IMG/VR virus record: IMGVR_UViG_3300029623_000016
Span: 1 to 43,426 of that record
Strand: one strand, 5' to 3'
Source of the DNA: a virus
DNA length: 43,426 bases
Under the pieces are notes generated by a model that searched no databases, was not told the origin of the DNA, and saw only the letters and a program-made list of their open reading frames with translations. The first letter of the stretch is position 1; each line of letters starts with the position of its first letter. Shown piece after piece: positions 1 to 43,426 of this stretch. The position numbers were made by a program, and so were the translations under genes.

Positions 1-87
1 TGCGTGTACATTCTTTAAGACTGCGGTTCCTCCTTAACGTCGGAGGGCGGCTCGTTCTCCACTTCAATGTCTGCGGGAATCAAGAGC
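1..87. repeat. Terminal overlap: nt 1-87 are identical to nt 43340-43426, giving circular or circularly permuted genome closure (unit length about 43,339 bp)
   Basis: Exact identity seen directly. ORF 15..284 (-) stops at 15-17 and ORF 42913..43350 (-) starts at 43350 (equivalent to nt 11), so coding is continuous across the junction. This argues for an assembly overlap or permutation rather than a non-coding DTR. Confidence 0.85.
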
Positions 88-284
88 GCCGCAACTTGCG
101 AGACTATCGCGTCCGGAAGCTGGTTAACGTAGCTTTCACCGTAAACATACGGCTTTGACAGTCCGTCGCTCCATTCCTCCCCACTCGGGAATTTTGTTAT
201 CGCCTCTCCTTTGAGAGTGATTTCTTTCAGCGCGAAGTATATTTCCACGCCTTCCTTACTTTTGATTAGAATTTTCTTAGCCAT
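15..284 (-). CDS. Hypothetical protein (89 aa). Late-arm gene whose 3' end lies in the terminal overlap
   Basis: ORF on the late strand, tightly packed: 3 nt separate the start of the upstream 145-aa gene from this gene's stop in the circular map. Confidence 0.5.
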   Translation of the reverse strand: MAKKILIKSKEGVEIYFALKEITLKGEAITKFPSGEEWSDGLSKPYVYGESYVNQLPDAIVSQVAALLIPADIEVENEPPSDVKEEPQS

Positions 285-1506
285 TTGCTTGATTTATTTG
301 AGTTTTGATTTCGTCCACGAAAGCTTTTACTGATTGGTCGTTGTCGCCAACAACACTCCCTGTGACTGTTGCGTCGTAAGAATGACCCGAAGCGTCCTTT
401 ACAAGTTTAGTAGTTGAATTGCGCTCGATTACGTAGTTGTCTAGCGCGAGCGAAACTTGCGAAGGCTTTAACGTAGGCGGAATAAGTTTTCCAACCGCAT
501 AATCGGCTGTGGTGTACGGCGCGCCTTCTGCCGTCATGTCGAAATTGAATACCGAGATTCGCGAAAGTGCGATTTCAAATTCGTTGAATGTTGAACCTCC
601 CGCGTACACTCCGCGCTCGTTTATCACAAGCGGCTTTTGGAATGAAACCGACGCGTTGTGCCTGCCGACCGACGCGACGAGGCTGCCTGCGTTTTCGCCG
701 TCTATGTATACAGGTATAGACGCGGGGCTGTTGCCGCTTGCGTCGGGCGCGGGAATTGCAATCGCGACGGTATGTCTGCCGGTCGGCAGCGGGATATTTC
801 CTCCCCACCCCCTCGACACTCCCATTCCCTCGCCGCCGCATCCGCCGAGCGTGAAGCCCAACTGCGACTCCCCGCTCTTGGTGAGCCTGAATCCGTATAT
901 CGGATAACCCGAGACGTTCCAGTCGGCGTTCGTGCAGTTGAAGAAAGAAAATTCGTTGTTGTATTCGTAGCTTATCCCCTCCCAGCTTTCGACTTCGTAT
1001 TCGATTGCGAGCGAAAACGGCAGCGGAATGACGACCGACGTCCAGCTCGCCACGCTCAGCTTGCCTTGATTGAAGTGCAGCGTGCCATACGGAAGTTTTG
1101 ATAAAGCTAGCGTAGATAGGTCGTAAGACACTTCATCAATCGTATCCGATAGACTAGTTACTTCCTGCTGCAAGATGGTTACATCGTCCTTTGAGGCGGT
1201 TCCTGAAAGGTATCCTTTTTCATCAACGCCATCAACAGTTGAGTCCTCCTGTATTTTGGACACAACCATATAGGTTTGACCACTTTCTGTAGAAAACGTA
1301 AGCCTACCTCCAGTAGGATTACCAGCGTTAGATGATATAGTATAACGTCCTGCGGGCGGTACTACGGTAGTTTTATTCTCTCCGGCGGGGTCTACAAAGT
1401 CGACAAGAAAAGGAATGTTACCTACATTAGTGTAGATAAGTTTAACATCTTTTACCATGTCTGCAAAGTTAACTTGTAGACCGCCAGTATTTACTGCAAT
1501 TTTCAT
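277..1506 (-). CDS. Putative virion surface or host-recognition protein (409 aa) with a GC-rich mosaic central segment
   Basis: Long late-strand ORF. Gly/Ser/Thr-rich, beta-rich-looking sequence. Coordinates ~500-1100 are markedly GC-rich, producing spurious ORFs on both strands. No catalytic motif recognised. Confidence 0.45.
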   Translation of the reverse strand: MKIAVNTGGLQVNFADMVKDVKLIYTNVGNIPFLVDFVDPAGENKTTVVPPAGRYTISSNAGNPTGGRLTFSTESGQTYMVVSKIQEDSTVDGVDEKGYLSGTASKDDVTILQQEVTSLSDTIDEVSYDLSTLALSKLPYGTLHFNQGKLSVASWTSVVIPLPFSLAIEYEVESWEGISYEYNNEFSFFNCTNADWNVSGYPIYGFRLTKSGESQLGFTLGGCGGEGMGVSRGWGGNIPLPTGRHTVAIAIPAPDASGNSPASIPVYIDGENAGSLVASVGRHNASVSFQKPLVINERGVYAGGSTFNEFEIALSRISVFNFDMTAEGAPYTTADYAVGKLIPPTLKPSQVSLALDNYVIERNSTTKLVKDASGHSYDATVTGSVVGDNDQSVKAFVDEIKTQINQANG

Positions 1507-1778
1507 TTTAGATTGCCTTTCAATATAATCTCATTTAAAGTTAGTCGTAAATCACTTATTATCGCGTCTTTCTCCTGTATTACTCTTTCCGATGCTAGTG
1601 TTATCGACCGTCCCGTTTTGTTCGTAAAGCTCTGACCATTTTCCAGATACAGGTAATCCGGCAAGGACGTGACTTCGTAAAGACGCGAGTCTACTACGGT
1701 CGCGTTGCAACCTGTCAACCAAAGTATGTTGACCATCAGCGCGTAACGTAGTAATCTTTTCTTGAAATTCTTGCTCAT
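1503..1778 (-). CDS. Lipoprotein, o-spanin candidate (91 aa)
   Basis: N-terminus MSKNFKKRLLRYALMVNILWLTGC has a basic n-region, hydrophobic core and L-T-G-C lipobox. Overlaps the 108-aa ORF in another frame, an embedded or overlapped spanin-like architecture. Confidence 0.45.
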   Translation of the reverse strand: MSKNFKKRLLRYALMVNILWLTGCNATVVDSRLYEVTSLPDYLYLENGQSFTNKTGRSITLASERVIQEKDAIISDLRLTLNEIILKGNLK

Positions 1779-1878
1779 TCTCGTATTCCTCGTTCAGAAC
1801 GTCCAACACTAGTTTAGACTTTCTTATCTCTAAGTATATTCTTATACACTCTATAAGAGATGCCAAAGTTTTCAACAT
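1552..1878 (-). CDS. Possible coiled-coil partner ORF (108 aa) overlapping the lipoprotein gene. i-spanin-like by position only
   Basis: Fills the 134-nt gap in a tightly packed operon. Charged and helical-looking. No convincing N-terminal TM, so it may be spurious. Confidence 0.25.
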   Translation of the reverse strand: MLKTLASLIECIRIYLEIRKSKLVLDVLNEEYENEQEFQEKITTLRADGQHTLVDRLQRDRSRLASLRSHVLAGLPVSGKWSELYEQNGTVDNTSIGKSNTGERRDNK

Positions 1879-1912
1879 AGTGTTGGACGCCAGAACATGA
1901 GGTTAAGTATGG

Positions 1913-4141: not shown

Positions 4142-4155
4142 TTCCTTTGGAAATG

Positions 4156-4178
4156 ACGTTATAAATGATTTATAATGT
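4156..4178. promoter_or_regulatory. Copy 1 of the 23-bp perfect AT palindrome ACATTATAAAT(C/G)ATTTATAATGT, 14 nt upstream of the TerS-like start
   Basis: Read directly. Palindromic with 11-bp arms. Contains TATAAT/TATAAA on both strands. Confidence 0.6.
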
Positions 4179-4904: not shown

Positions 4905-4972
4905 TAAATTATATCATTATTTATCATTATTTATTATTATTTATTATATTATATCATTATTTATATCATTTT
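4905..4972. repeat. Tandem AT-rich repeat array (units approximately ATCATTATTTAT)
   Basis: Seen directly: atcattatttatcattatttattattatttattatattatatcattatttatatcatt. Confidence 0.6.
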
Positions 4973-7350: not shown

Positions 7351-7405
7351 TGCCCCGCCTTGCGGCGGCTGGAAGTCGGCGGGGTGAAGCTGAGTGAATT
7401 TTTAA
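7351..7405 (+). terminator. GC hairpin (CCCCGCC...GGCGGGG) followed by a T-run: rho-independent terminator candidate
   Basis: Inverted repeat 7353-7359 / 7378-7384, then aattttt. Confidence 0.45.
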
Positions 7406-10349: not shown

Positions 10350-10519
10350 GATTTAGTTCCCCCGCGCTCGGAATAGACTCGGGATTCGGCAACAATCAGT
10401 GGGCGGGGCAAGCTTTGATTCATAGCCACCCCGCCCGCTTTCACCAACCGACTCTAATCCGCCCGCAAGGGCGGGGAGTCTACCCTAACTTTAATCAATC
10501 AACCTCAATACGAAGTAAT
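10350..10519 (+). repeat. Structured intergenic cassette B: perfect 8-bp GGGCGGGG/CCCCGCCC hairpin, CCGCCC-GCAA-GGGCGG tetraloop hairpin, then CTAACTTTAATCAATCAA followed by a start codon
   Basis: Related to cassette A (8310-8431). Read directly. Confidence 0.55.
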
Positions 10520-15047: not shown

Positions 15048-15240
15048 TTATAACATTGAAGATGGGAATGACCCTCTTGACGAGTTCTTGTCTGTTGATA
15101 TAGATAAGATGACTCCCGAAGAATTGTCCGCTCATATAGCTACACTTAACGAAGTTGCTGAAAATCCAAAAGCTGTTAGAAGAATAGTAGCAAAGAAAGA
15201 AAAGAAAACTATAACATTAGATAAATTATTAGAACTATGA
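15034..15240 (+). CDS. Hypothetical acidic protein (68 aa)
   Basis: ORF. Confidence 0.35.
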   Translation: MPTDDYNIEDGNDPLDEFLSVDIDKMTPEELSAHIATLNEVAENPKAVRRIVAKKEKKTITLDKLLEL

Positions 15241-16220
15241 AACTACCTCTTGCTAAAATACTTGATGAGTGCGAAGTAGTTAATGACATCTTTGAAAAAA
15301 GAACATTGACTATGAGCAATAGTGCTTTTAATACTTTCAGTTGTCCAGTAAAAGGTTTGTTAAGTTATGCTTTTAAACTTAGACCTATTGGCGCATCATC
15401 GTTGGCTATGGATTATGGAACGTCTATACACGCGGGGTTGGCGGAGATGATGAAGGGAAAGTCACTGGAAGAAGCCAAACGAGTATTTTATCAAGAGTCG
15501 GATAAGTTCCAGATAGATACCTATGATGACCCCCGCCGTTGTACAGCCCGTGGTACGGATACACTTGAACAGTGGCAACAGTGGATAGCTACGTTGAATT
15601 ATCCAATTAAGGCGATAGCCCTTAAAGAACGCCCCGCCGTTGAAGTGTGTGTAGTAAAAACGATAGCCAAAGAAGAAGTCTCTTTTCTTGGAGAGATGAC
15701 ATTCAAATGGCTTGGTATTATAGACGCTGTTGTAGAATATAAAGGACAGTATTGGATACTTGACCACAAAACTACAAGTATGCTTGGCGATAGATTCTTA
15801 GATGATAAGATACGTAGTAATCAATTCTTAGGATACTATTATCTTATGAAAGATATAGTCAAGAAAGAGCTTAATGTTGATATCGCGGGGTGTCTCATTG
15901 ATGCAATCAGCACGGGGACGAAAGATGTTAATTTCCGTTTGTATGAAATACCATTTAGTCCGTGGCAGATAGACGAATGGATTGTTAGTACGAGACGTAA
16001 ATTGCTGGATATTGTCTATACGATAAGTAATATAGTATTTAATCCAGAATATGAAGTAGTAGCTGAACTTGAATCTTGCGTGACTAAGTATGGTCGTTGT
16101 CCATTCTTTAATGTATGTTCGGTTAATCCCCGCCTTAGAGACGAGATGCTTAGAATAGAGTTCATGAAGCATGAACATAACGCACGTGAATCAAATGATT
16201 TTGTAATTGAGGAAGAATAA
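15237..16220 (+). CDS. PD-(D/E)xK exonuclease, Cas4/RecB-like, with a probable Fe-S cysteine cluster
   Basis: IIDAVVEYKGQYWILDHKTT (D...E.K core) and a four-Cys arrangement (N-terminal FSCP plus C-terminal ESC...YGRCPFFNVC). Confidence 0.65.
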   Translation: MKLPLAKILDECEVVNDIFEKRTLTMSNSAFNTFSCPVKGLLSYAFKLRPIGASSLAMDYGTSIHAGLAEMMKGKSLEEAKRVFYQESDKFQIDTYDDPRRCTARGTDTLEQWQQWIATLNYPIKAIALKERPAVEVCVVKTIAKEEVSFLGEMTFKWLGIIDAVVEYKGQYWILDHKTTSMLGDRFLDDKIRSNQFLGYYYLMKDIVKKELNVDIAGCLIDAISTGTKDVNFRLYEIPFSPWQIDEWIVSTRRKLLDIVYTISNIVFNPEYEVVAELESCVTKYGRCPFFNVCSVNPRLRDEMLRIEFMKHEHNARESNDFVIEEE

Positions 16221-16221
16221 T

Positions 16222-16554
16222 ATGAATAAAATAGTATCAACACTAAAAGAATTGCAACTCCGCTGTCATTCGATAGCGAAAGCCCACGGTTGGTGGGATA
16301 AAGAAGTTCCGGTTGGGACTGCTATTGCACTTATGCATAGTGAGCTAAGTGAAGCTCTCGAAGCTGAACGTAATAGGATTGAGAAAAGTGAACATATACC
16401 GGAGTTCACCGGTCTCGAAGAAGAACTCGCTGACTGTGTCATAAGAATACTTGACTATTCTGGTAGTAGAAACCTCCGCCTCGCGGAAGCTATTGAAGCA
16501 AAGATAAACTTTAACGAGAATAGGTCTTACAGACATGGGAATAAATCTTTCTGA
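16222..16554 (+). CDS. MazG-like nucleotide pyrophosphohydrolase
   Basis: HSELSEALEAER...EEELADCVIRILD matches the EExxE...ExxD MazG/NTP-PPase pattern. ATG at 16222 follows RBS gaggaag. Confidence 0.5.
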   Translation: MNKIVSTLKELQLRCHSIAKAHGWWDKEVPVGTAIALMHSELSEALEAERNRIEKSEHIPEFTGLEEELADCVIRILDYSGSRNLRLAEAIEAKINFNENRSYRHGNKSF

Positions 16555-16867
16555 TGATGACGAGACAGAAGAAGTTATCGAGTCTGATGAGTTGATAGCT
16601 TCCTTTAAATGTTTGCTAACTTATTTCTTAGGAGATAAGTTATCCAACTATAAATATCTTACAATAGACGGAGATGGTTCAATAGGATTGTTCAAGCACA
16701 TGCCTGTATGGGATAGTGAGAACGATATGTGGACTATGAGCGAAGAGTTTGTTGAAGATATAGATTCATTAAATGAAGTCTTTGATGAGTTTTTAGAAGT
16801 TGGTTCATTAAGTAAATTATCTTGTTGTGAAGATATAAGAAATAGACATTTCATATTTGATTTATAA
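16535..16867 (+). CDS. Highly acidic hypothetical protein (110 aa; roughly 30 D/E versus 7 K/R)
   Basis: Composition read from the translation. Start overlaps the upstream stop. Confidence 0.5.
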   Translation: MGINLSDDDETEEVIESDELIASFKCLLTYFLGDKLSNYKYLTIDGDGSIGLFKHMPVWDSENDMWTMSEEFVEDIDSLNEVFDEFLEVGSLSKLSCCEDIRNRHFIFDL

Positions 16868-16869
16868 CT

Positions 16870-32863: not shown

Positions 32864-33456
32864 TATCGTTCTTTCGTTTTAACTATTTTAACTGTTAAGC
32901 TAACAGCTTTTAGGCGGGAGATGTAATTCTCTCCGTCATTAGTATACTCTAATTCAAAAGCTATGTATTTATATTCTCCCGCCCGTCTTAGCCAATACTG
33001 TAAGTATCCTTCTGGATTAACTGTCGCGGGGATTTCAATCCAATTATCAGGGTCTCCATAGTTTTGTCTTGCACTAACACGTAATATAGGCTGAATAGTT
33101 CCACCACAATCATATGCAACATTTAAAGATATTAAACTCTTAACGTTCTTTAATGTTTCTAATGCAAATGTATTTGTACGTAAACGAACAGTTATAGGTT
33201 TATCTTTTGTTCCGTACTGGTCGTAAACTATTCTGAATATATATGTTTTAGATTTATCAGGATTAGGAAGCTGAAATATATCAGAATTGCCCATAATCAC
33301 GGGCGGGCGCGGGATAGGATTAAAAAGCCAATCTCCATTTCCTGTATAGCCTTTTTCATTAAGGTCGTTCCAAGTATATTGCAAGCTCCCTTGCGGAAGC
33401 ATATCATAATATCGAACAACTTGGCTCGTATCAAATAACTTATTATATATGCTCAT
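32863..33456 (-). CDS. Hypothetical tail-associated protein (197 aa)
   Basis: ORF in the tail block. Confidence 0.4.
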   Translation of the reverse strand: MSIYNKLFDTSQVVRYYDMLPQGSLQYTWNDLNEKGYTGNGDWLFNPIPRPPVIMGNSDIFQLPNPDKSKTYIFRIVYDQYGTKDKPITVRLRTNTFALETLKNVKSLISLNVAYDCGGTIQPILRVSARQNYGDPDNWIEIPATVNPEGYLQYWLRRAGEYKYIAFELEYTNDGENYISRLKAVSLTVKIVKTKER

Positions 33457-34570
33457 CGTTAATCACCCTCGTTGTCCATATCTTATCTCGTATACTATAC
33501 TTGATACACCAGAAGTCTCCAGAGTCTTTTTTCTGGAATACCCAACTTACTGCATCTTGGTCTAATTCATAATGACCTATGATGTTATCTGTCTTAGTAG
33601 TCTCAGCTACTTGATTAAACCAATTCCAAATGGGGTCTCCGATGGGTACAAGAGTTAAACCATCAAGTGCATAAAAGTTATCTTTTCCAATGAAATATGA
33701 AATTTCATTTGCTGTTACTACACTGTAATGATAAATACAACCTGTGTTAGATGTGAGAACGGTAGTTCTGAACCTATTATCATGTCCCTCATAATCAGAC
33801 CTCCAGATAGAGTTTTTAGTAAACGTTATGACTACACCTTCCGTCCAGGCTAATCCGGTAACTTCATTTGCATTTGCACCAAGATTAAAAATATCAGCTT
33901 CTTTCGACCTTGTGACTTCAAAATCCTCTGGATTGTTTATATCACTCCACATGATAGTTCCAGGATTATCTTCTCCGTCTATAAGAAGATTTCCTAAAAA
34001 CAGTCTATCTTTGGTAACTAAAATATATTTTGCACTTATATAAACGGCAGTTTCTTTTTCACCTTTTAATATCTTATAGGTTGGAGTTACTAATTCTATC
34101 GAAAACGGTATACCTAACGTAGTAGAAGAACCAGGAATTATTTTATATAGAGGTAAACCTTTACGAGTCATATAAGCAGTGGATATTTCAGTCCATACCC
34201 ACTGCGCAAATTGCATAGTTCCATCATCGTAATTTTTATAAACAGTTCCATCTTCAAGAGTAAATTGACCTACTTCTAATAATGGAATAATTTGCTCATC
34301 AGGGTCTTTTCTATCACAATAATAAAATTTATCATCAATTTTTATACCAAAATATTCTATATTATCTTGAAGTGTTATAGTGACAGCATAACCATCTACC
34401 TGCCCAGTTCCGTTAAAAACAGCATATGGTACATATGATGGTTCAGACCTCATAGAGCCGTCTTCGACATAACCATTCTCAACTTCTTTAAAATACAAAG
34501 AAGTTGAAATGTCATTTATATCTTGACGTATACCAAAGTTAATCGGTATTACTATTTCATTCCTTGCCAT
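33443..34570 (-). CDS. Hypothetical tail protein (375 aa)
   Basis: ORF in the tail block. Confidence 0.4.
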   Translation of the reverse strand: MARNEIVIPINFGIRQDINDISTSLYFKEVENGYVEDGSMRSEPSYVPYAVFNGTGQVDGYAVTITLQDNIEYFGIKIDDKFYYCDRKDPDEQIIPLLEVGQFTLEDGTVYKNYDDGTMQFAQWVWTEISTAYMTRKGLPLYKIIPGSSTTLGIPFSIELVTPTYKILKGEKETAVYISAKYILVTKDRLFLGNLLIDGEDNPGTIMWSDINNPEDFEVTRSKEADIFNLGANANEVTGLAWTEGVVITFTKNSIWRSDYEGHDNRFRTTVLTSNTGCIYHYSVVTANEISYFIGKDNFYALDGLTLVPIGDPIWNWFNQVAETTKTDNIIGHYELDQDAVSWVFQKKDSGDFWCIKYSIRDKIWTTRVINDEHI

Positions 34571-36062
34571 CGTCTAACCTTTTCCAGAAATTCATTCCTA
34601 ATATAGGTAAAACACTTTCGTAATTTTTACCTACCTCTATATCAGTTACTCTATATGTTTCGTTGTTAAAAGGCATATTTAAATTTATAGTCATTTCTAA
34701 ATCAACTAACCACCATAAAGTATCCTCTTCTAATTCGATTTCTTGAGGGTCTACTACGGAGAATACGATATATCCATATGCTCTATCAGTGTATGTGTTT
34801 TTAATATTATTAAAGTAAACACCATTTCTTACAGCTTCTTCGATAGTTGTTTCACCTATAATAATACCATCAGGATTCCATACAGGGTCTTTCGACAAAG
34901 TTATTTTAACTTTATAATTTTTGTATTTCGAGAGGTATAAATTTCCCGACAATGCTAAATTAGGAAAAATATACAAATACTTTTGGGAAAATAGAGACCA
35001 AGCATTTTTTAAAGAAAATGACACATCGGTTATATTAGCTAAATATCCTACCGGAGTATAGAAATAAATTTTTTGAAGTTTTGCTACATCATTAGCTTCT
35101 TTATTTACTCGAAGCATGTTGCGATAAGTTCTATTAGAATGTTTTTCTACTATTTGTTCCAAAGTACAATTAGCGTATTGTGTTGCCTTTAAAGTCCAAT
35201 TTAATTCATAATTAGGTGTCCATCTAGAATTATTACCTATCGCAGTAATGTTAATAAACGCGTTATTCCTTAATGAAAATCCTTGTATATTACTTGTGCG
35301 TTCTCCAAATGACACTATAAAATACTTTGCTCCTTGTAAATCATTCTTAGTAAAAGTTCTCTTATACGACTGCGTTTTACCTAAATGAAATAATCCAAAT
35401 GAATGGTATCTGCTATCAGATGAATTTTTAGACGCTAACCAAAAATTAACAGTTAAATCTGGGCAAGAAAGAATACCCCATGACGTTGCACCGCCGTTAT
35501 TTAATGATAAGTCTAGATTAGTTACGTCAGTTATAGATAAAGGTATAATAACATATAATCTACTCCTTATATAACTATTTGACGATAACTGTATAGTTTC
35601 ACCATCTATTATCTTAGTAGTCAATACTCCGTCATTATCTTCATAGTCTCCCCACTTAATCCAATTTAAGGTATAATCCGTTATAGGAATACCAACAAAA
35701 TCATCAGAAGTTCCATATGCAAATGTATTGAAATTAGCGTTGCCAGTAGCACATATAGCTTGACTATTTAATTTAATCCAACGACCAGAAAATTTGCTAC
35801 TATTATTCGGGTCTATATCAGACCTCAAAGCTATCACTTGATTATTTCTACTATATACTTGACTGTCTTTAAAATTATTTAATATTGCATTATCGTCTGA
35901 TATAAATATATCAGCTAATGTTTGAAGTAAACCATCATCGTTTTTTAAAAATCTTTTTATCTGTCTAAGAGCACGAGCGTCAACATTAAAACCATCTGCA
36001 TCTTCAGGTGTGCTTGCCCGTAAATTTCTTAAACTACTTCCACTGTAAGTGTCATTACTCAT
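34557..36062 (-). CDS. Tail fibre/tailspike-like protein B (501 aa). N-terminal ~120 aa homologous to the neighbouring 335-aa protein
   Basis: Shared N-terminus (YSG...PED...RQ[VI]KRFL...), divergent Asn/Ser/Thr-rich C-terminus. Confidence 0.5.
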   Translation of the reverse strand: MSNDTYSGSSLRNLRASTPEDADGFNVDARALRQIKRFLKNDDGLLQTLADIFISDDNAILNNFKDSQVYSRNNQVIALRSDIDPNNSSKFSGRWIKLNSQAICATGNANFNTFAYGTSDDFVGIPITDYTLNWIKWGDYEDNDGVLTTKIIDGETIQLSSNSYIRSRLYVIIPLSITDVTNLDLSLNNGGATSWGILSCPDLTVNFWLASKNSSDSRYHSFGLFHLGKTQSYKRTFTKNDLQGAKYFIVSFGERTSNIQGFSLRNNAFINITAIGNNSRWTPNYELNWTLKATQYANCTLEQIVEKHSNRTYRNMLRVNKEANDVAKLQKIYFYTPVGYLANITDVSFSLKNAWSLFSQKYLYIFPNLALSGNLYLSKYKNYKVKITLSKDPVWNPDGIIIGETTIEEAVRNGVYFNNIKNTYTDRAYGYIVFSVVDPQEIELEEDTLWWLVDLEMTINLNMPFNNETYRVTDIEVGKNYESVLPILGMNFWKRLDDGKE

Positions 36063-37069
36063 TATACGTCCTCGATAGCAGGTGATTCATCACTAGTTTT
36101 GACCCAAATATTAACTCCGATAAAAGGTACAGATTCTTGGTAAGAAGCATCTGCTACTACTTCATAAGATGAAGTAAAATTAGCCACCATAGATGCACTC
36201 ATTGCAGAAGCTATTACATTACTCCCAGCTCCATATTTATTAGTTATCCATTCGTCTGGATTATCACAATTATAAGTAGCAATAAGCCAACCGTCAGTGT
36301 CGGAAAATTTTATTTCACTACTACCCGTATACGATGACTGTATTCCTAAGGTATTATTTTTGGGTGCAAAAGTTCCTTTATAAAGTTCCGTCCCAATGTT
36401 AACTCCATAAGTATTATTATTGGAAAAAGAGATTCTTATTGGAAGAGAAGTTAATCTATCATAGGCAACATTTAATTCATCTAAATTTATAGTATATATA
36501 AGAGTAGCATTAGTTAAGTTATTACGAGGAATTTTAAGCGCAGAATAACACCTTCTATAATGAAACCATGTACCATCGTCATTTGATACATAATGAAACC
36601 ATCTGTAATATGGTGTATTATTATCTAGTCCTGTCTCTAATCTTTTACTAGTAGTGCCTCCCCATTCTGCGTCAAAAGCAGAGCCATCTACCGATATGTT
36701 CGTTTTATTAGGAGTAAAAGCTACTATACTTCCAGTACTAACTAAAAGCTTACCAGAAATTTTCTCCCACGTTCCATTAAAATAAAGTTGATTTTCTTCA
36801 TCATTTGGATTAAACTCATTATCCATAGTAAAGTAAAGTTCACCTATTTCTGGAACTCTAATAAGTTTATTAAGTGCATCTAATATAGGATTAGAAGTTT
36901 CAGATGTTATCCATTCCGTTATCTTAGCTTCAAGCCCCTCTGGTCGTGTCAAAAACCTCTTAACTTGACGCATAGCTGCCGCATGGTATCCAGCAAGTTC
37001 AGTATCTTCTGGGTACTGCGGATTTATATCATTAAAAGTATTTCCAGAATAGTCAGGCATATTAACCAA
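36062..37069 (-). CDS. Tail fibre/tailspike-like protein A (335 aa). Paralog sharing an N-terminal anchor domain with the 501-aa protein
   Basis: N-terminal alignment of DYSGNTFNDINPQYPEDTELAGYHAAAMRQVKRFL with TYSGSSLRNLRASTPEDADGFNVDARALRQIKRFL. Confidence 0.5.
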   Translation of the reverse strand: MVNMPDYSGNTFNDINPQYPEDTELAGYHAAAMRQVKRFLTRPEGLEAKITEWITSETSNPILDALNKLIRVPEIGELYFTMDNEFNPNDEENQLYFNGTWEKISGKLLVSTGSIVAFTPNKTNISVDGSAFDAEWGGTTSKRLETGLDNNTPYYRWFHYVSNDDGTWFHYRRCYSALKIPRNNLTNATLIYTINLDELNVAYDRLTSLPIRISFSNNNTYGVNIGTELYKGTFAPKNNTLGIQSSYTGSSEIKFSDTDGWLIATYNCDNPDEWITNKYGAGSNVIASAMSASMVANFTSSYEVVADASYQESVPFIGVNIWVKTSDESPAIEDV

Positions 37070-37688
37070 AAATTTGAATTATTCCTACTTGTTTAAATCC
37101 AGAGTTCCAAGTCTCTACATCAAGAAAAGCACTATCTCGTGACTGTTTATTAGCGGCAATGATATTTTCATCTTCTTGTAAGAACATATACATTCTATCA
37201 AGCGTATCATAATAGACATAATCGTGTATTGCAGGCAAAAATTCATTTGCGTACTTATCATTAACTTCTCGGCTCTTAGTAATATTAAGATACCCTTGGA
37301 TACTTAATTCCTCATTAAATCTAGGTGGAAGTATAATAATATTTCCACGCTTCGCCAAAGTATAAGCAGGCAAGCATTGAGGAGATTTAAGATAAACGTC
37401 CGCAACCATAGACGTAAATGGCATAAGTCTCCATTGCTGTCCACCTTTACCAAGTACAAGTTCAATACGTTTAAATGTGTTATTTAAATCTAGGTCGCTC
37501 GTCTTGTCAGACGAGTCATTGATTGCATTGACGTTAATAACGTCGTTGAAAATTTCAAAATCTATCTTTATAAGAAGTCTATTTATAGACTCGCTTACAA
37601 AATTAGAAACAGGTTCTTTCCAATAATCGTCATCTTCTGGACGATTAACGGTTCTCAAAACTTCTAAGGTTATATCTTCTTCTGTCAT
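37062..37688 (-). CDS. Putative head-tail adaptor or tail tubular protein (208 aa)
   Basis: Position after the capsid genes, size similar to podoviral adaptor/gp11-like proteins. Positional only. Confidence 0.3.
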   Translation of the reverse strand: MTEEDITLEVLRTVNRPEDDDYWKEPVSNFVSESINRLLIKIDFEIFNDVINVNAINDSSDKTSDLDLNNTFKRIELVLGKGGQQWRLMPFTSMVADVYLKSPQCLPAYTLAKRGNIIILPPRFNEELSIQGYLNITKSREVNDKYANEFLPAIHDYVYYDTLDRMYMFLQEDENIIAANKQSRDSAFLDVETWNSGFKQVGIIQIFG

Positions 37689-37755
37689 AATATGACCTTT
37701 CTATAATAACGACAAGGGCTACACCCAACGAGAAGTGTAGCCCTTGCGTCATTCT

Positions 37756-37968
37756 TTAACTCCCTTGAAGTCCACCACCAGGTTTAGCACCCGAAGGTAT
37801 ACCACCTTTGTTAGATGTAGGAGCAGGCGATTGACTGCCTATGTTTTTCGTATCGAAGTTTCCGCCACCGGTCGGAGGCTGGTTTCCTTTCCAACTACGA
37901 GCATCAACACCAGACGGCGGAGTTGCTCCGTACAAATCTACGCCTTTTGCTTTTCCATCAAGAGCCAT
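37756..37968 (-). CDS. Gly/Pro-rich small protein (70 aa) immediately downstream of the capsid gene. Decoration or minor capsid candidate
   Basis: Start taken at MALDGKAKG, preceded by RBS aaaaaggaaaa. Composition GGGNF...GGIPSGAKPGGGLQGS. Confidence 0.4.
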   Translation of the reverse strand: MALDGKAKGVDLYGATPPSGVDARSWKGNQPPTGGGNFDTKNIGSQSPAPTSNKGGIPSGAKPGGGLQGS

Positions 37969-37996
37969 AGTATTTTCCTTTTTTGATTGTTTACTT

Positions 37997-39412
37997 CTAG
38001 TCAACTTCAAGCTCGGGATTGAACACAGACATATTCTTAATGAACATGTGGTTCATCGGCTTCCAGAACTCCAACGTACCTTCGGAAAGCCATTCATCTT
38101 TCCTGCCGTCGAAGTCATTCGACTGTATGTTAGTTCTGACCTGCGTATCCCTGTCCCTCAACGGTCTCCAATTTATCGACCATATGTCTACTATGAGAGC
38201 AGACTTACGGTAAATCGGATTTTCATTGAAGAGCGGGTGCGTCACAAATATGAGAGTGCCGAAAGCGGTGATAAGCTTGTTAAATTCAAGCCCAAACGCT
38301 TTCTGACCAACTTCCCAGTGATACGAACCCTGAGCACGCATTGCCTTAGACATCGCACGCATAACGTCAGAACCGCAGAGAACGAGACGTTCAGCAGTCT
38401 TGGCGTTGTAGTACAGATTGATGTTAGACAACCACTTTTCAAGCAAGTCGATATTGAACTCACCAGACGCGTTTTCTATAATACGTTTTTCAGGGTCGTC
38501 ATCAGTCGTGGACGGTTGCTTGAAGCTATAAGGATTCCATACCTGACCGTTAACCATAATACCGTTAGAGCCAGCGTCCCAAGCTTCAAGAAATTCGAGG
38601 ATACCCGACATCGTACGAGTTTCCGTCACAGAACCATCAGCGTTCGTTATCGTCCTGTTAGAACGTTTCGAGAACAACAGCGATTTTTCAAGCTTGACAT
38701 AGTGGTCTCTCGCAGCGTCCATAGCACGCTTCTTATACGGACCAGACTGGTCGAACTCCAAATCCTGCTTTATCGCCGAACCAGTGAAGATGAACGGTTC
38801 TTTGAATATCTGAGTCTGATTCTGCAAGAAAGTCGGAATACGAGTACCACGAGGAGTACCGCTATGTCCACCTTCCTCGAAAGCAGAACCGATAACGTCT
38901 ATCGACGTACCAGCCGCATAGTCAGTCAAATTACCCGAAGCAACAGCAAAGTCACGTATCGGAAGTACTTCAACATAACCGTTAACAGTGTTGTCCGCAA
39001 CACCAGGAGTGACAGCCGTTATACGAGCAAGTGCATTCCAAGTATGGAAACGAACAACATCTCCAACAGTCAAAAGACCAACCGAAGTAGCTTTAATATA
39101 AAGCTTGTCAGCGGTGGTATACGTTTTAGCCGTAATCACAGTACCATCATTAGCATCACCAGTGGTGGGAGCATTAGTGGTAATAGGATTCGTGCCGCGA
39201 GTAGTTATGCTCGGAGAACGGTATATCTCCTCTATCCACTCGTGTTTAGTGTTCGCAATGGGGTCAACATTCGCCCAAGCAATAAGAGCCGTAAGCGGAG
39301 CACCACCATTAGGAAACGCGTTTATAATCGTGCGACGAAGAGACCTATGAATGAGGTCTTTATCGCGAAACTGCTCCACCGAAGGGAAGCCAAGTATTAC
39401 GTTTTCTGCCAT
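37997..39412 (-). CDS. Major capsid protein (471 aa)
   Basis: Order portal, scaffold, then this gene. Size is right. Elevated GC content typical of a highly expressed or conserved gene. Fold not verifiable by eye. Confidence 0.6.
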   Translation of the reverse strand: MAENVILGFPSVEQFRDKDLIHRSLRRTIINAFPNGGAPLTALIAWANVDPIANTKHEWIEEIYRSPSITTRGTNPITTNAPTTGDANDGTVITAKTYTTADKLYIKATSVGLLTVGDVVRFHTWNALARITAVTPGVADNTVNGYVEVLPIRDFAVASGNLTDYAAGTSIDVIGSAFEEGGHSGTPRGTRIPTFLQNQTQIFKEPFIFTGSAIKQDLEFDQSGPYKKRAMDAARDHYVKLEKSLLFSKRSNRTITNADGSVTETRTMSGILEFLEAWDAGSNGIMVNGQVWNPYSFKQPSTTDDDPEKRIIENASGEFNIDLLEKWLSNINLYYNAKTAERLVLCGSDVMRAMSKAMRAQGSYHWEVGQKAFGLEFNKLITAFGTLIFVTHPLFNENPIYRKSALIVDIWSINWRPLRDRDTQVRTNIQSNDFDGRKDEWLSEGTLEFWKPMNHMFIKNMSVFNPELEVD

Positions 39413-39427
39413 TTTGTGTTTTCCTTA

Positions 39428-40375
39428 TTAGTAGCCAAAGATGCTAAATCCAGCACTTACATTATCTTTGACTGTTTCATTAGGTTTATTTATTACTCCA
39501 CCCGATGAGAATGTGCGCGTTGTCGCTTTTGGAACTGACGTTGTTGCATTCTGTTGTACAGGATTTGCAACAGCACCTCCATTATCGAGTTTGACTTTTG
39601 GGTCAAAGTTAGGAATAGACTGTTTAATTACTTTTGATATTTCATTAACCAGTGTTTCTTTAAATTGTTTTTCCGGAACTTGTAGCAGTTTAGGATTCTG
39701 CTGAGCTATACTAGCGGTCATTACATTAACTACTGACTTGTAAGGAATAAGTCCAGGGTAGTCTTCATAGAACTTAGTTTCCGCTTCATGTGCTGCTTTC
39801 TGCGAAACTTGTGAAAGAACAGGCTGAATATTCTGTGCAAAGAAATTATCAATCCTACCTGCATATTTATTAAGTTCCGCGTTAGCAATAGTCGTTGCCA
39901 TGTTCCTACCATACATTGCTGTACGAATAAGAAGGTCGGTCAACATTGCCGCACGCTCTTCTTCCGGAGTTTCAGACGAAAATATTTTACGAGTCTCTTC
40001 CGGAGTTATAGAAATTTTACCAAGAATACGGTTTGCTTCTTCTATGGTAAGTTCAGGCTTCTTTTCCTGCTGTGCTTTATTCTGTTCAGCATTAACAGCT
40101 GCAACAGCAGACGCAACCGTTTTAGCAAGCTCTATTTGGTCTATACCTTTATTGCCATCGTTAGCGGATTGACCGACTGGTGGCTGACCGCCTTCGGCGG
40201 ACGGTGGCTGGTCGGTTGAAGTTTGGGGTTCCTGTTGCTGTGAAGCGTCAGTCTGCCCCGCCTGCTCATTGCCCGAGCCGGACGGTTCTTGGTTGACCGC
40301 GGGGTTATTACGTTCCAAAGCCATCTGTATCATATCTACATCTGGCTGTTCACCTATGTTGTTTTCATCTGCCAT
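39428..40375 (-). CDS. Scaffolding protein (315 aa)
   Basis: Between portal and capsid. Q/E/P-rich disordered N-terminus followed by helical regions, as scaffolds typically have. Confidence 0.5.
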   Translation of the reverse strand: MADENNIGEQPDVDMIQMALERNNPAVNQEPSGSGNEQAGQTDASQQQEPQTSTDQPPSAEGGQPPVGQSANDGNKGIDQIELAKTVASAVAAVNAEQNKAQQEKKPELTIEEANRILGKISITPEETRKIFSSETPEEERAAMLTDLLIRTAMYGRNMATTIANAELNKYAGRIDNFFAQNIQPVLSQVSQKAAHEAETKFYEDYPGLIPYKSVVNVMTASIAQQNPKLLQVPEKQFKETLVNEISKVIKQSIPNFDPKVKLDNGGAVANPVQQNATTSVPKATTRTFSSGGVINKPNETVKDNVSAGFSIFGY

Positions 40376-40377
40376 AT

Positions 40378-40581
40378 TTATTCCTGTCTGGTTATTGATT
40401 TTATGTAGTTGTGGAAATCCTCTGGAAGTTCGACTAGCGTCCTGTAAACTTCACCAAGCCGTTCTAGCCTTTTCCTGTCTTCGTCATTTTTAGGCGGGGT
40501 TCCAAGAATATCATAAACAAGCTGTTCAGCCTTCTTATCTATGAAGTTCTTGAATAAGGTCTCATAATCTTGTATTGTCAT
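40378..40581 (-). CDS. Hypothetical small protein (67 aa)
   Basis: ORF. Its start codon directly abuts the AT palindrome. Confidence 0.4.
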   Translation of the reverse strand: MTIQDYETLFKNFIDKKAEQLVYDILGTPPKNDEDRKRLERLGEVYRTLVELPEDFHNYIKSITRQE

Positions 40582-40603
40582 ACATTATAAATCATTTATA
40601 TTT
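40582..40603. promoter_or_regulatory. Copy 6 of the AT palindrome. It contains the portal stop codon (40596-40598) and abuts the next start codon (40581)
   Basis: acattataaatcatttatatttg. Confidence 0.6.
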
Positions 40604-42581
40604 GACCGTTTTGGAGAGCCTGCGCTATCGGCATCGCTTCTTGTCCTGCCGGAGTTATATTACCCTGTTGCGCTTGCATTATTGCCTGTTCGTCGGGAAC
40701 GACATTTATCTGTGGGGCAGGGGCAGGCTGTTGGGGCGGGGGCGCATTCTTATACGCCTCATAATTCCTTATTCCCATTATCTCAAATATCTTAGAAAGA
40801 ATTTTATCTACCGAAAGATTGGTAGCTTGTATAAGATTAGGATTACTAAGAAGTTCCTTAGCTAGACTGGCTATCTGCATACGCCCACCATCTGTGATAG
40901 GCTCTATCGGTACGAAGTCATATCCACCTGCTATTTTGGCGGGGTCGGACATAATCACTCTATCGTACGGATAATATGCAATAGCATTTCCTATTATCTG
41001 CTCGTAAACCTCTTGTGTTCTAAACTGTCTGGTATTCGAGAGAATAAGCTCGCCGAGAATATCAAAGCCACCGTACCACATGTTGTTAACCATTAGGGCA
41101 AGGCGGGCTTGCGCGGCGGCTTGAACTCCTCTTGTCTGCAAAGCTGACCTTCTGCCAGAAGTATACATTCCCATTGCATTCTCGGTTATACCAGTAGCCA
41201 TCTGTGCTATTTGTTGCAATGTTTGCACAAACGGAACGTGATTCGCGGTCATATCACTTACGGTGAGCGGGATAATCGCATCGCCAAGAGAAGTACTTCC
41301 TTCAACTCTAATAAAGTCGGCATTATTAACCACGTCGTCCATATTGACATTCTTGGTCTTAATAAGAAAGCGGTTCTTAATCGCTTGTCTTATATTCTGC
41401 ATATGACTATTGATAAGCCAAGTAATCATTTGCTGTAAGCCGTCAAGAACGCCAGGTAGAGTCAATCCTATAAAGGAATCTCCGTCGGGGAGGGGCTGAC
41501 TTACAAAGAACGGGAATTTACCATGAAGCTCCTCATATCGTTCAAAGCGGATAACTTTCGTATCATTAGCGACAACGAGAACGAACATGATAGGCTCTTC
41601 TTCATTACCTATATCGATACCATACTTTTCGGTTATTTCCTTCGGAACGAGTTTAAGGAACATCTCTACGGTATCCATTTGAGTACCAGTAGAAATTTTA
41701 TCACCTAGAACTGAGTTTACGTAGTTGAGTCCTGTTTGGTCTTTACGAACTCTAAATGTTCCGGCATAACGCTGACGACCACGATATATATCTTCTGGTA
41801 TACTGTTAGGAACTCTATTAACGCCGTGGAACAAAGTTCCTTCTTGTTCTAGAAGTTTAACTTTTGTAGTGCATTGTTCTACTGCACAATAGCTACCATT
41901 CTGAAAATCCCTTATCGGTACAGACGGGTCAGGAAAGAATGAATAAGGACTAATGTAAGAAATTACATTTCCTTCGTACTGTATAAGCTCCTTAACAGTC
42001 TCAACTTCTTCGTATTGTGTCGAGGCGGGTTGCCCCATTCCAAACATATTTAGAAGCTGTCCTATGGGATTTATGATTGGACGTTTTTCTTTTACCCTGT
42101 ATTTCTTTTTCTGGGTTTCCCAGTCACAACGACCAACCGTAATACCTTTTGTAAAAGCATCTATAAGTTGCAAATACAAAGTGTGATAGATACGATTATG
42201 CTTAATTTGGTAATCTATGTCACGTTCTAGACCTTCTCTAACGTCTTCGTCTTCCGGACCATATGCGGTTAATTCAAACAGACGTTCTTTGTTCATGAAC
42301 ATCTGCATTGAATTGGCGGCGGCAGTCTGAACTGTGGCAAAGCTAAGTGGTACTATAATTTTAGCAGTTCCACCTTTTTTAAGATTCTGAACATCTTTCT
42401 TATCAAGAGACCTATATCCAGTATATCTTAGGTAATCTTTATCCCAAAGATACCAGAATTGAGACATAGTGCTAGATGACTCGCACATAAACGAGCGATA
42501 GATATTCACCAGATGCTTCTGAAAATCAGAAGCATTGCTATCTTTGTCTCTTAGGTCTTTATTTATCTGTTCTTGATTCAT
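40596..42581 (-). CDS. Portal protein (661 aa)
   Basis: Large ORF immediately upstream of scaffold and capsid. Size and low-complexity PQQPAPAPQ C-terminal tail fit. Positional. Confidence 0.55.
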   Translation of the reverse strand: MNQEQINKDLRDKDSNASDFQKHLVNIYRSFMCESSSTMSQFWYLWDKDYLRYTGYRSLDKKDVQNLKKGGTAKIIVPLSFATVQTAAANSMQMFMNKERLFELTAYGPEDEDVREGLERDIDYQIKHNRIYHTLYLQLIDAFTKGITVGRCDWETQKKKYRVKEKRPIINPIGQLLNMFGMGQPASTQYEEVETVKELIQYEGNVISYISPYSFFPDPSVPIRDFQNGSYCAVEQCTTKVKLLEQEGTLFHGVNRVPNSIPEDIYRGRQRYAGTFRVRKDQTGLNYVNSVLGDKISTGTQMDTVEMFLKLVPKEITEKYGIDIGNEEEPIMFVLVVANDTKVIRFERYEELHGKFPFFVSQPLPDGDSFIGLTLPGVLDGLQQMITWLINSHMQNIRQAIKNRFLIKTKNVNMDDVVNNADFIRVEGSTSLGDAIIPLTVSDMTANHVPFVQTLQQIAQMATGITENAMGMYTSGRRSALQTRGVQAAAQARLALMVNNMWYGGFDILGELILSNTRQFRTQEVYEQIIGNAIAYYPYDRVIMSDPAKIAGGYDFVPIEPITDGGRMQIASLAKELLSNPNLIQATNLSVDKILSKIFEIMGIRNYEAYKNAPPPQQPAPAPQINVVPDEQAIMQAQQGNITPAGQEAMPIAQALQNGQI

Positions 42582-42582
42582 A

Positions 42583-42909
42583 TTAAAAAAGCTTTTGTGC
42601 TAAGAAGTTTGTCGCGAAGGTAATAACACCAACTGCTCCCACAGCTTTCCATTTAAAAGCTTCAAGACTTCTTATTCTCAAATCAAGAGAGTCGTAGTTC
42701 TTTTTACACGTTTCTTCTAGATTATCTAGTTTAGTGTGTAAAGGTTTACATACAAACTCTCTGTGCTCTTTGAATCGTGTGTATTCCTCAGACATTGAAT
42801 CAAGTTTTTCTTCACGACGTCGAGCATCTTCCTTCATTTCAGCTAGGGTAGTGAGAATATTCTTGTAATTCTCTTCTGCCCTAACAAGCCTTGACGTATC
42901 GTCTGACAT
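42583..42909 (-). CDS. Coiled-coil protein with a C-terminal transmembrane helix (108 aa)
   Basis: Charged helical N-terminus and C-terminal WKAVGAVGVITFATNFLAQKLF. Confidence 0.4.
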   Translation of the reverse strand: MSDDTSRLVRAEENYKNILTTLAEMKEDARRREEKLDSMSEEYTRFKEHREFVCKPLHTKLDNLEETCKKNYDSLDLRIRSLEAFKWKAVGAVGVITFATNFLAQKLF

Positions 42910-42912
42910 AAC

Positions 42913-43350
42913 TTAATTCAACTTTAAAACGTTATTCCTAAAAGAAATGCACCAAGCAGCCTCGCCTCCTACTTCTAAAAAACGATAAGCCAGTATAACT
43001 TTGCGCTCGTCCCATAACCTATGAAGCCAACTCCACAAGCCGCCGTTTGCGTGTCTATACTTAACTTCTGCTATACCGTTCTTTAAAAACTCATTATCAG
43101 CTTTCCTTTGACTTTCTGGTAATCCGTCTGAATGTTCGTACCGCCAGTCATGTATTGCCGCCGTCGCCTGTGCGCAAGCGTATGCCTTAGTCAAAACATT
43201 ACACAACTTTTCGGGCAAAGACGCACCTCCCACTCCGTTACAAACTTCGCAAAGTTCATTGAGTGAAGCATTTGCGAAGTCGTTAGGAAACGAAAGCTTA
43301 GCTGCTTTCGCCACCGATATGAGTTCGAGCATCTGGTCTTGCGTGTACAT
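42913..43350 (-). CDS. Hypothetical protein (145 aa); start codon lies in the terminal overlap
   Basis: ORF. Cys/His-rich (CEVCNG...C...H), possible metal site. Confidence 0.4.
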   Translation of the reverse strand: MYTQDQMLELISVAKAAKLSFPNDFANASLNELCEVCNGVGGASLPEKLCNVLTKAYACAQATAAIHDWRYEHSDGLPESQRKADNEFLKNGIAEVKYRHANGGLWSWLHRLWDERKVILAYRFLEVGGEAAWCISFRNNVLKLN

Positions 43351-43426
43351 TCTTTAAGACTGCGGTTCCTCCTTAACGTCGGAGGGCGGCTCGTTCTCCA
43401 CTTCAATGTCTGCGGGAATCAAGAGC
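43340..43426. repeat. Second copy of the 87-nt terminal overlap
   Basis: Identical to nt 1-87. Confidence 0.85.

Follow-up and report, generated by a model that had tools for sequence, protein, structure and literature searches.

The G/C-only word GGCGGG, dispersed in the AT-rich genome of a gut podophage, is a DNA-level signal that fits no known type

The window of this analysis is a whole viral contig of 43,426 bp with a G+C content of 39.2 % (IMG/VR record IMGVR_UViG_3300029623_000016). DNA identical to the window is present in the Logan assembly of run ERR911995 and in the JGI set 3300045988. The genome is podophage-like and arranged in two convergent gene arms. The early or replication arm (approximately 5.5-24 kb, + strand) codes for a DNA ligase, a PD-(D/E)XK nuclease, a MazG-like pyrophosphatase, an AAA_24/Sak4-like ATPase, a ParB_N-N6_N4 methyltransferase, a family A polymerase and a DUF3987 'primase'. 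The late arm (24-43.4 kb and 0-4.1 kb, - strand) codes for the large terminase, an SU10-type portal and the major capsid protein (37997-39412, -, matching SU10_MCP and phrog_1328), and a putative scaffold gene lies at 39428-40375 (-). Over most of both arms the G/C-only word GGCGGG, read as CCCGCC on the opposite strand, is dispersed in 92 copies. This word is a real DNA-level signal and fits no known type such as Chi.

An exact count over the whole window yielded 48 copies of GGCGGG on the + strand and 44 of CCCGCC, while 5.0 copies were expected from base composition, 6.8 from an order-2 and 28 from an order-3 Markov model. The original prediction, made from the letters of the window, had recognised the strong enrichment, but its tally of about 80 copies was low, and its G+C content of about 37 % and expectation of three to four copies have to be replaced by 39.2 % and 5.0. 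Most of the positions it listed are correct to a few bases (1384, 3359, 4031, 7353/7378, 9366, 13000, 14027, 16128, 18371, 20241, 21249, 23331, 25153, 26547, 30180, 32308 and 40493); the copy placed at 11755 lies at 11737 and that placed at 27517 lies at 27508. The heptamer GGCGGGG/CCCCGCC occurred 55 times (1.0 expected). For GGCGGGR, 80 copies (41 on +, 39 on -) were counted versus 3.3 ± 1.5, with a maximum of 7, in dinucleotide-preserving shuffles, an approximately 20-fold enrichment in an AT-rich background. Shuffling of synonymous codons within genes gave 19.9 ± 3.1 hexamers (maximum 29) and 9.1 ± 1.7 heptamers, shuffling of the codon order 15.4 ± 2.4 hexamers; these values include nine intergenic copies that were never shuffled. 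At k = 6, 7 and 8 the word was by far the most over-represented one in the genome. The enrichment thus held against Markov backgrounds and codon-preserving shuffles, and the copies were not confined to a few GC-rich patches. Since it survives these shuffles, occurs in all frames and on both strands and comes with purifying selection, the proposal of a DNA-level signal rather than a codon effect was supported and reinforced.

The best form of the word is V-GGCGGG-R with a graded specificity: T is disfavoured at -1 and R preferred at +1, while further 3' C is disfavoured at +4 and favoured at +6, these last two less strongly. All four preferences hold separately in sense, antisense and intergenic copies. 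The words CGCGGGG (18x) and AGCGGGG (6x) were likewise enriched, and the window also contains, beyond its own GGCGGGR, AAGCGG (34 versus 12 expected) and AGGCGG (49 versus 8). GGGGGG, GGGGGC and other palindrome-free G/C hexamers were absent or rare. From these preferences the footprint would span approximately 13 bp with graded tolerance, as is expected of a protein site.

The main motif-bearing part of the genome extends from 1384 to 33307 and holds 86 of the 92 copies. With the G-rich strand on + they start at 1384, 2237, 3250, 3397, 4031, 4518, 4874, 6108, 7378, 7961, 8160, 8327, 8393, 8914, 9886, 10402, 10470, 11737, 13000, 13958, 14468, 17830, 18160, 18371, 18538, 18786, 19422, 20147, 21075, 22046, 22692, 23088, 24147, 24488, 24923, 25666, 26678, 27683, 28236, 28240, 30544, 32913 and 33302. 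Copies on the - strand, read as CCCGCC on +, start at 2906, 3360, 3529, 5320, 7354, 7671, 7841, 8311, 9367, 10430, 11962, 14028, 14777, 15532, 15633, 16129, 17023, 17808, 18013, 18770, 18944, 19314, 20242, 21250, 21456, 23034, 23332, 24219, 25154, 26548, 27509, 27831, 28140, 28199, 28377, 29395, 29773, 30181, 30940, 31010, 32014, 32309 and 32978. Six further copies within 40257..42029 are located in the 5' end of the scaffold gene, a small open reading frame (ORF) and the portal gene: 40257 (-), 40493 (+), 40735 (+), 40938 (+), 41102 (+) and 42024 (+). All six classes of frame and orientation are populated (sense 15, 9 and 17 copies; antisense 20, 10 and 12), and nine copies are intergenic; the predicted occurrence in all frames, on both strands, in both arms and between genes is borne out by these counts. 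A test of the orientation, as the original prediction had suggested, revealed no bias overall (48:44), none within the early (about 25:24) or the late arm (about 21:20) and none relative to transcription (41 sense, 42 antisense). Outside the large gap described below the spacing is Poisson-like, with a mean of 400 bp and a coefficient of variation of 1.0 (random 0.99 ± 0.10), which rules out regular spacing. The order of orientations is random with slightly too much alternation (57 runs versus 47 ± 4.8), an excess caused by hairpin pairs; for inverted pairs at a distance of 16-25 bp the tendency, if there is one, is towards over-representation.

Hairpins are formed by just a few inverted pairs, and the statement that pairs of copies make up the terminator hairpins applies to a single terminator-like structure at 18128-18176. 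There, on the + strand just upstream of the ParB-methyltransferase gene, a CCCCGC...GGGCGGGG hairpin (18128-18166; -26.3 kcal/mol, z = -3.9) is followed by the U-run UUUUCUUUU, the sole look-alike of an intrinsic terminator. Three copies (10402+, 10430- and 10470+) together with CCGCCCGC at 10459 form two strong adjacent hairpins in an intergenic region and gene start (10401..10477, +; -47.8 kcal/mol, z = -6.0). The inverted pair CCCCGCC...GGCGGGG at 7353..7384 (+), located between the genes 6972-7340 and 7424-7903, has a 10-bp stem, and its -20 kcal/mol is no better than that of shuffles (z = -0.6).

The word is under purifying selection over its whole length. The close set for comparison consisted of six IMG/VR genomes with 92-94 % nucleotide identity and a seventh, partial contig; the word density in this set is the same as in the window. 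Divergence statistics refer to seven related genomes that are phylogenetically non-independent. Motif hexamers were kept in 79 % of the comparisons, versus 64-73 % for all hexamers. At third codon positions the G/C sites of the word diverged by 11.3 % and those of the GCGGG/GGCGG family by 10.3 % (seven genomes), versus 17.6-22.9 % for control G/C sites and 19.9 % for other G/C runs of at least five. Along GGCGGG and the two following bases the ratio of observed to expected divergence was 0.43, 0.29, 0.75, 0.91, 0.33, 0.75, 0.52 and 0.64, with flanks of approximately 0.8-1.0. The non-CpG Gs are most protected (0.29-0.43) and the CpG positions least (0.75, 0.91), while position +1 reached 0.52; constraint therefore covers the whole word, with the CpG as the part most open to mutation. 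Turnover was observed at 19 sites missing in one genome and at 10 sites present in one genome only, in all cases by substitution. The insertion of small G/C-rich mobile units was ruled out, since the relatives differ by substitutions and not by insertions or deletions. One-transition neighbours are not depleted (GGTGGG 20 versus 7.7 expected, GGCAGG 12 versus 7.7). In these alignments conservation, per-position constraint, turnover by substitution and undepleted neighbours argue for a selection acting on the word itself and not for a repair or mutation artefact.

Changes at the two CpG positions of the word comprised, versus six relatives, 18 C>T, 23 G>A and 16 G>T. The G>T change at the CpG G recurs independently, with GGCTGG alleles at 14468, 18371, 21075 and 40735. 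Third positions in CpG are fast throughout the genome (24.9 % versus about 18 %).

The word was thought to occur throughout the genome; this is contradicted by a copy-free block of about 7 kb. Between 33303 and 40256 no copy was found (n = 0). The block (33308..40256, -) contains the genes 33443-34570, 34557-36062, 36062-37069, 37062-37688 and 37756-38010, the capsid gene and most of the scaffold gene, thus scaffold, capsid and five downstream virion genes including that of the tail-tube. Amino-acid contexts able to encode the word by synonymous choice were realised in one of 27 cases inside the block (about 4 %, at its edge) and in 83 of 238 elsewhere, with 43 of 92 (47 %) in early genes and 40 of 146 (27 %) in other late genes. 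The same block is empty in the six 92-94 % identical genomes and in the seventh, partial contig. It shares the genome-wide avoidance of GATC and GGCC and has a normal CpG content. In four more distant sister phages (L028, L029, L030 and L033) the equivalent scaffold-capsid-tail block is poor in each lineage's own variant of the word. Depletion of the equivalent block even in distant sister phages shows the gap to be systematic and not a recent import; a recent horizontal import was also ruled out by a divergence and restriction avoidance equal to those of the remaining genome. The second-largest motif-free stretch (2.8 kb, 42030-43426 and 1-1383) covers small post-portal genes and a host-derived receptor-binding gene and is of marginal significance (approximately 0.08, corrected).

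Variants of the word were found across the clade. Graded uncultured relatives were obtained from a capsid-protein search, and the loci around seven of them were sampled in the vicinity of the capsid gene. Every relative with a capsid protein at least 51 % identical (51-78 %) showed almost no GATC and an enrichment of words with a GCGG core. In L028 (capsid 78 % identical) this was AGGCGGC with 16 copies versus 1.4 ± 1.2 (strands 9:7), in L033 (55 %) ARGCGG with 83 copies versus 29.7 ± 3.7 after synonymous shuffling (strands 44:39); L029, L030, L034 and L035 had a weaker enrichment of GCGG-core words. The more remote L010 (IMGVR_UViG_3300046488_000035; PolA 27 % identical, 43 % G+C) carries the 14-mer TTGACGGGGGCAGC in 10 copies within 22 kb (2403-19752), five per strand, with 10 copies of its 8-mer core versus 0.2 expected; it is an independent dispersed motif. 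Among side observations on these phages, the Haemophilus/enteric-type Chi GNTGGTGG was biased to the sense strand in the late genes of L028-L030 (5:0, 6:0 and 5:1), as was TGGTGG in those of L028, L029, L033 and L034 (14:0, 11:1, 9:1 and 7:0); the window counts of the two words are 1:3 and 6:8. The bias could be due to GGT-codon usage or be a real polar signal. A pig-gut contig of another phage type (L024/L025, lysin 47 % identical) has 57 copies of GCGGG versus 19-28 expected, nearly all on the sense strand, and a near-absence of GATC; this pattern differs from that of the window.

A candidate host emerged from the putative receptor-binding protein gene (277-1506, -; 409 aa) between terminase and portal. 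Its GC-rich core (472..1074, -; 53-63 % G+C) is free of motif copies. At the protein level the core is about 85 % identical to chromosomal proteins of bacterial metagenome-assembled genomes (MAGs), and at the nucleotide level the gene matches a chromosomal gene of MAG GCA_904424815.1 with 86 % identity over 605 bp. Identities of this order indicate a recent gene transfer between phage and bacterium. The gut bacterial lineage of this MAG, with 57 % GC, is the probable host, an assignment taken from one shared gene. It possibly belongs to the Verrucomicrobiota; one MAG with a homologue is labelled Opitutales bacterium (Verrucomicrobiota) by NCBI. Homologues of the core were present in many long gut-metagenome contigs, and the GC-rich phage contigs L122, L124 and L125 hold the same core. 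The 21.8 kb around the bacterial gene (L039) are ordinary chromosome (uvrA, feoB, shc) with 57.5 % G+C and under-represent GATC, GGCC, GGATG and CCWGG, the sites avoided by the phage. An infection of a host with about 57 % G+C by a phage with 39 % would itself be unusual. An ISL3-family transposase gene (L039, 14433-15659) adjoins the bacterial homologue. Copies at least 90 % identical occur in human-gut contigs of 36-55 % G+C (loci L040-L091), therefore the element is common to very different gut bacteria; a metagenome scan with this transposase for host DNA yielded nothing usable, the insertion sequence lying in backgrounds of 36-55 % GC. Searches of the GTDB genomes returned nothing for PolA and two irrelevant MAG fragments only for the capsid protein alignment. 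A Bacteroidota host, suggested by the weak Shine-Dalgarno signal, was rejected: the Bacteroides-type promoter pattern was not enriched, TTGACA-type -35 boxes were present in the AT-rich intergenic region, and a B. xylanisolvens plasmid lacked an enrichment of the word (GCGGG 11 versus 25 expected).

In DNA of the candidate-host lineage, 49.7 kb in all and so assigned by that one gene, GGCGGGR occurred 48 times versus 33.5 expected (1.4x the dinucleotide expectation); the single samples had 20 versus 14.2, 12 versus 10.4 and 16 versus 8.9. GGCGGG took ranks 13-19 among the 36 G/C-only hexamers. GCGG was about 2x over-represented, versus 1.0-1.2x in unrelated DNA. The density of the hexamer was 2.1 per kb in the phage and 1.0-2.7 per kb in candidate-host DNA and its GC-rich prophages.

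We tentatively favour, with less than even confidence, the view that GGCGGG(R) represents redundant recognition sites, spread over the genome, of a protein, nickase-like or genome-organising, that binds or processes DNA sequence-specifically and whose specificity evolves with the phage lineage. This view is based on the graded specificity over approximately 8-13 bp, the indifference to orientation and position, the collective selection, the fast turnover, the differences between sister lineages and the exclusion from the most expressed genes. We infer that a protein reads the word, and what it does; most likely this reader would be encoded by the phage. Each copy would contribute little, the number or density of sites being selected and not their position, and point mutations would create and remove copies at any place where the coding sequence permits. 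Function in either orientation would mean recognition of the duplex or of either strand rather than one-directional tracking. In the most heavily expressed genes a bound protein or rare G/C-rich codons may be too costly, which would account for the gap; alternatively, sites may simply not be needed in the capsid, scaffold and tail-tube block. Sister lineages would use the sister words ARGCGG and AGGCGGC, likewise built around GCGG. As reader, a nickase-like or genome-organising protein would be the most concrete candidate, because LUZ24/tf-type phages and T5, whose genome is AT-rich, have lineage-specific dispersed motifs that mark site-specific nicks. A nucleoid-protein or packaging-type site, a role already listed in the original prediction, is compatible with everything seen and would be the favoured family in a more general form.

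The LUZ24/tf-type phages are the closest characterised relatives of the phage, with genomes of approximately 43-46 kb and two convergent gene arms. Its capsid protein shares 22-26 % identity with the counterparts in PaP2/119X/PaMx-type Pseudomonas phages, Caulobacter phage Kuura and others, and by this measure the phage is a distant relative of the LUZ24/tf group. A near-identity search with 20 kb of the window against GenBank phages and a search with two tail proteins against a phage collection gave no match. Within this wider phage group, dispersed motifs have been characterised by experiment only as the nick-associated words of tf/LUZ24-type phages and of T5. The nicks of tf and related Pseudomonas phages are marked by TACTRTGMC, present in 9-14 copies, and a co-evolution of nickase and site was suggested by the authors (PMC3517423, PMC11780129); the nick consensus of T5, R/GCGCRGG, is a G/C-rich heptamer (PMC3517423). 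Like the word studied here, the nick motifs of LUZ24/tf (TACTRTGMC/WACTRTGAC), phiKMV-like phages and T5 are lineage-specific, dispersed, mostly intragenic and enriched, and drift between related phages. The type is described by about 4-15 copies of a 7-20 bp word per genome, a copy number exceeded here. The word is not filed as a nick motif.

Several observations weigh against the protein-site reading. Nick motifs occupy a single strand with 9-14 copies of at least 9 bp per genome, whereas 80-92 copies of 7-8 bp on both strands were counted here, and efficient nicking at every copy is implausible, because pairs on opposite strands 16-25 bp apart would break the genome. Scans of about 40 proteins with Pfam, PHROG and NCBIfam left most early genes without a family, and no candidate reader protein emerged. 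Little or no enrichment was seen in environmental relatives with the same replication module (PolA 36-38 % identical, approximately 50 % G+C); this result is not decisive, since such a G+C content would provide the sites by chance. The GC-rich candidate host carries the word at about 1-1.7 per kb by composition alone, so the word cannot tell phage from host DNA. Variants that change together with the receptor-binding genes and restriction profiles, and the twofold GCGG of the host, fit a host-determined signal equally well.

The main rival, which we consider unlikely, is such a host-determined signal: a Chi-like word for the host's AddAB or RecBCD, which would attenuate the degradation of phage DNA ends and/or load RecA. 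An AT-rich phage in a GC-rich host would have to build up the density that the host has by composition. The word is short, asymmetric and G-rich with a GCGG core, the sister phages are enriched for AAGCGG/AGGCGG, and the core recurs in the AddAB-type Chi words AGCGG of B. subtilis and GAAGCGG of S. aureus. The phage density close to that of candidate-host DNA and its prophages, the GCGG excess in the host lineage and the joint shift of motif variants with receptor-binding genes and restriction-avoidance profiles are in line with a Chi, as is a signal that would be density-dependent and weakly selected per copy. Chi enrichment is documented in the phages LLS (23 copies), P1 (50) and MD8 (32) (PMC12315714), where a short asymmetric G-rich word is also the most over-represented oligomer, lies in coding sequence beyond codon usage, comes and goes by point mutation and has a density of about 0.5-2 per kb. 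These phages, however, have neither recombination modules nor RecBCD inhibitors, and their Chi sites are strongly biased in orientation (20:3 in LLS, 32:0 in MD8) and clustered near one end of the genome (PMC12315714). Among lambdoid phages, it is the genomes without a recombination module that are rich in Chi. In the window orientation is balanced overall, by arm and relative to transcription, the spacing is Poisson-like with one internal gap, and the phage has its own recombination module (15237..17592, +) with the PD-(D/E)XK exonuclease (15237-16220), the MazG-like pyrophosphatase (16207-16554) and the Sak4-like ATPase of the AAA_24 type (16870-17592). The word is not special in the 49.7 kb of host-lineage DNA, three words in phages with 55-78 % identical capsids would need three Chi specificities among presumably related hosts, and the 7-kb gap would be explained by codon cost only. 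The Chi-like role in the original prediction was thus not supported, given the 48:44 orientation, the phage's own recombination module and a mid-table rank in host-lineage DNA. Among the known words, neither the Chi sites of E. coli, Haemophilus, Bacillus, Staphylococcus, Lactococcus and Pseudomonas nor uptake signal sequences (USS), DNA uptake sequences (DUS), FtsK-orienting polar sequences (KOPS) or SpoIIIE recognition sequences (SRS) were enriched in the window.

A function without a dedicated reader is quite unlikely as well. The copies could serve as lagging-strand priming sites, as G/C clamps or blocks against proteins spreading on AT-rich DNA, or as transcription pause or roadblock elements that tune expression. 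With about one copy per 0.9 kb on each strand, the density is on the scale of an Okazaki fragment, and the equal use of both strands, the gradient of realised sites from early (47 %) over other late genes (27 %) to the capsid block (about 4 %) as well as the contrast between 39 % G+C in the phage and 57.5 % in the candidate host would suit such roles. A generic G/C clamp, however, would not need one particular word, and other G/C hexamers are absent or rare; known primase sites are trinucleotides, and 7 kb without sites on either strand are awkward for priming; the equal numbers of sense and antisense copies make roles at the RNA level unlikely. Very improbable is the word as the target of the ParB-methyltransferase or of another modification enzyme, enriched as an epigenetic mark as proposed for HIP1-type words. 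The phage does encode a ParB_N and N6_N4 methyltransferase fusion (18186..19574, +), whose gene itself holds 7 motif copies, the clade variant ARGCGG includes an adenine, and the mutable CpG with its common C>T and G>A changes would fit cytosine methylation by some enzyme. The proposal that this enzyme is the reader is nevertheless weakened by its motif IV, DPPY (ITDPPYGI), which in beta-class methyltransferases stands for N6-adenine specificity: the core GGCGGG/CCCGCC has no A, and 20 copies read GGGCGGGG. L007-L009 encode orthologues with 36-38 % identity yet lack the motif, with 2-8 copies per 20 kb, the hypermutability of CpG is genome-wide and not a feature of the word alone, and we know of no mechanism by which a methylase target becomes 20-fold enriched. 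Hardly credible, finally, is a by-product of biased mutation or very-short-patch-like repair, or of compositional constraint, with no selected function. Random placement in both orientations and all frames would agree with it, a mild GCGG excess is seen in all DNA replicating in the candidate host lineage, and many other G/C words are barred by restriction avoidance (GGCC, CCWGG, GGWCC). A repair process would, however, have depleted the one-transition neighbours GGTGGG and GGCAGG, and the protection of non-CpG Gs over the CpG is the opposite of a deamination-repair signature; on these two grounds Vsr-like repair was ruled out. The 7-kb block with the same history of restriction avoidance is copy-free, close relatives in similar hosts use different words, and the repair biases known to us shift a word frequency by less than about 2-fold and not by 20-fold.

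Other dispersed motifs resemble the word in part. The USS and DUS of Pasteurellaceae and Neisseriaceae are likewise independent of orientation, present at about 1-2 per kb in all frames and scattered at random, with inverted pairs as hairpins or terminators. Unlike the word they are a property of host genomes, comprise 9-12 bp, are enriched hundreds-fold and are driven by uptake bias, and no such enrichment was seen in the candidate host lineage. The window contains none of the known USS or DUS words, and the relatives have no more than one Apl-type USS each, the chance level. HIP1 (GCGATCGC) of cyanobacteria is also a hyper-abundant short word in coding and non-coding DNA whose function long was unclear; it is palindromic, a property of host genomes and linked to cognate methyltransferases, whereas the word described here is asymmetric, specific for a phage lineage and incompatible with the DPPY methyltransferase. 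Cluster A mycobacteriophages contain dozens of asymmetric stoperators per genome, bound by one phage protein. With these sites the word shares the number, the asymmetry and the genome-wide occurrence; stoperators are 13 bp long, lie mostly between genes in the direction of transcription and occur in temperate phages that have an immunity repressor.

In its fullest form, which we hold to be possible and still doubtful, the protein-site reading describes a new kind of word in an AT-rich gut podophage clade that probably lives on a GC-rich Verrucomicrobiota-like host. It would be an orientation-independent GCGG-core word that varies with the lineage (GGCGGGR, AGGCGGC, ARGCGG) and is selected at 2-4 per kb, with a high density in early genes and exclusion from the capsid/tail-tube block. 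Its reader would be a phage protein specific for the lineage, either a high-copy, two-strand relative of the T5/LUZ24 nick systems or a genome organiser; the word would not be a Chi, an uptake sequence or a methylase target. A literature search on the GGCGGG word itself and on Akkermansia phages found nothing relevant. Few words are over-represented throughout a genome, and whenever one of them has been explained (Chi, KOPS, uptake sequences, nick motifs), the explanation led to a machine that handles DNA. The present case is a clean one, for an approximately 20-fold enrichment in an AT-rich background means that almost every copy is there for a reason; it offers population-genetic evidence of selection, a natural 'allelic series' in the sister phages and the capsid block as internal negative control. 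If the reader is encoded by the phage, the comparison of sister lineages should point to the protein and could bear on the 50-year-old puzzle of DNA marking in T5 and LUZ24. If it is a host nuclease, this bacterial lineage would gain its first Chi candidate, and the phage would build a host 'self' signal across a 17-point difference in G+C. Either way the word is a practical marker of the phage clade, and the shared gene segment connects a group of uncultured gut phages with a host.

Three further features of the genome deserve mention. The ORF 24062-28585 (-) encodes 1507 aa without a Pfam or PHROG match, carries 16 motif copies and is conserved in all sister phages, with a length of about 1500 aa; its product may be an internal virion or ejection protein. 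For the DUF3987 protein no match was obtained among PDB sequences. A very AT-rich non-coding region of 1.3 kb (4160-5520) separates the divergent gene arms. It contains many short repeats of the ATAATA/TTATT type, G/C hairpins at 4218-4238 and two TTGACA boxes that directly abut motif copies (4866, 5427), and probably holds the genome ends and/or early promoters. The avoidance of restriction-type sites is extreme throughout the genome, with observed versus expected counts of 2/154 for GATC, 8/64 for GGCC, 2/52-61 for GGATG/CATCC, 4/39 for GGWCC and 10/39 for CCWGG. Also avoided are CAATTG, CTTAAG and CTATAG (0/14 each), GAATTC (1/14) and ATTAAT (1/34). From this avoidance the phage DNA probably lacks modification and encounters many restriction systems. 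The avoidance profile of the window is partly like those of the sister phages L030 and L033 and like the under-represented sites of the candidate host.

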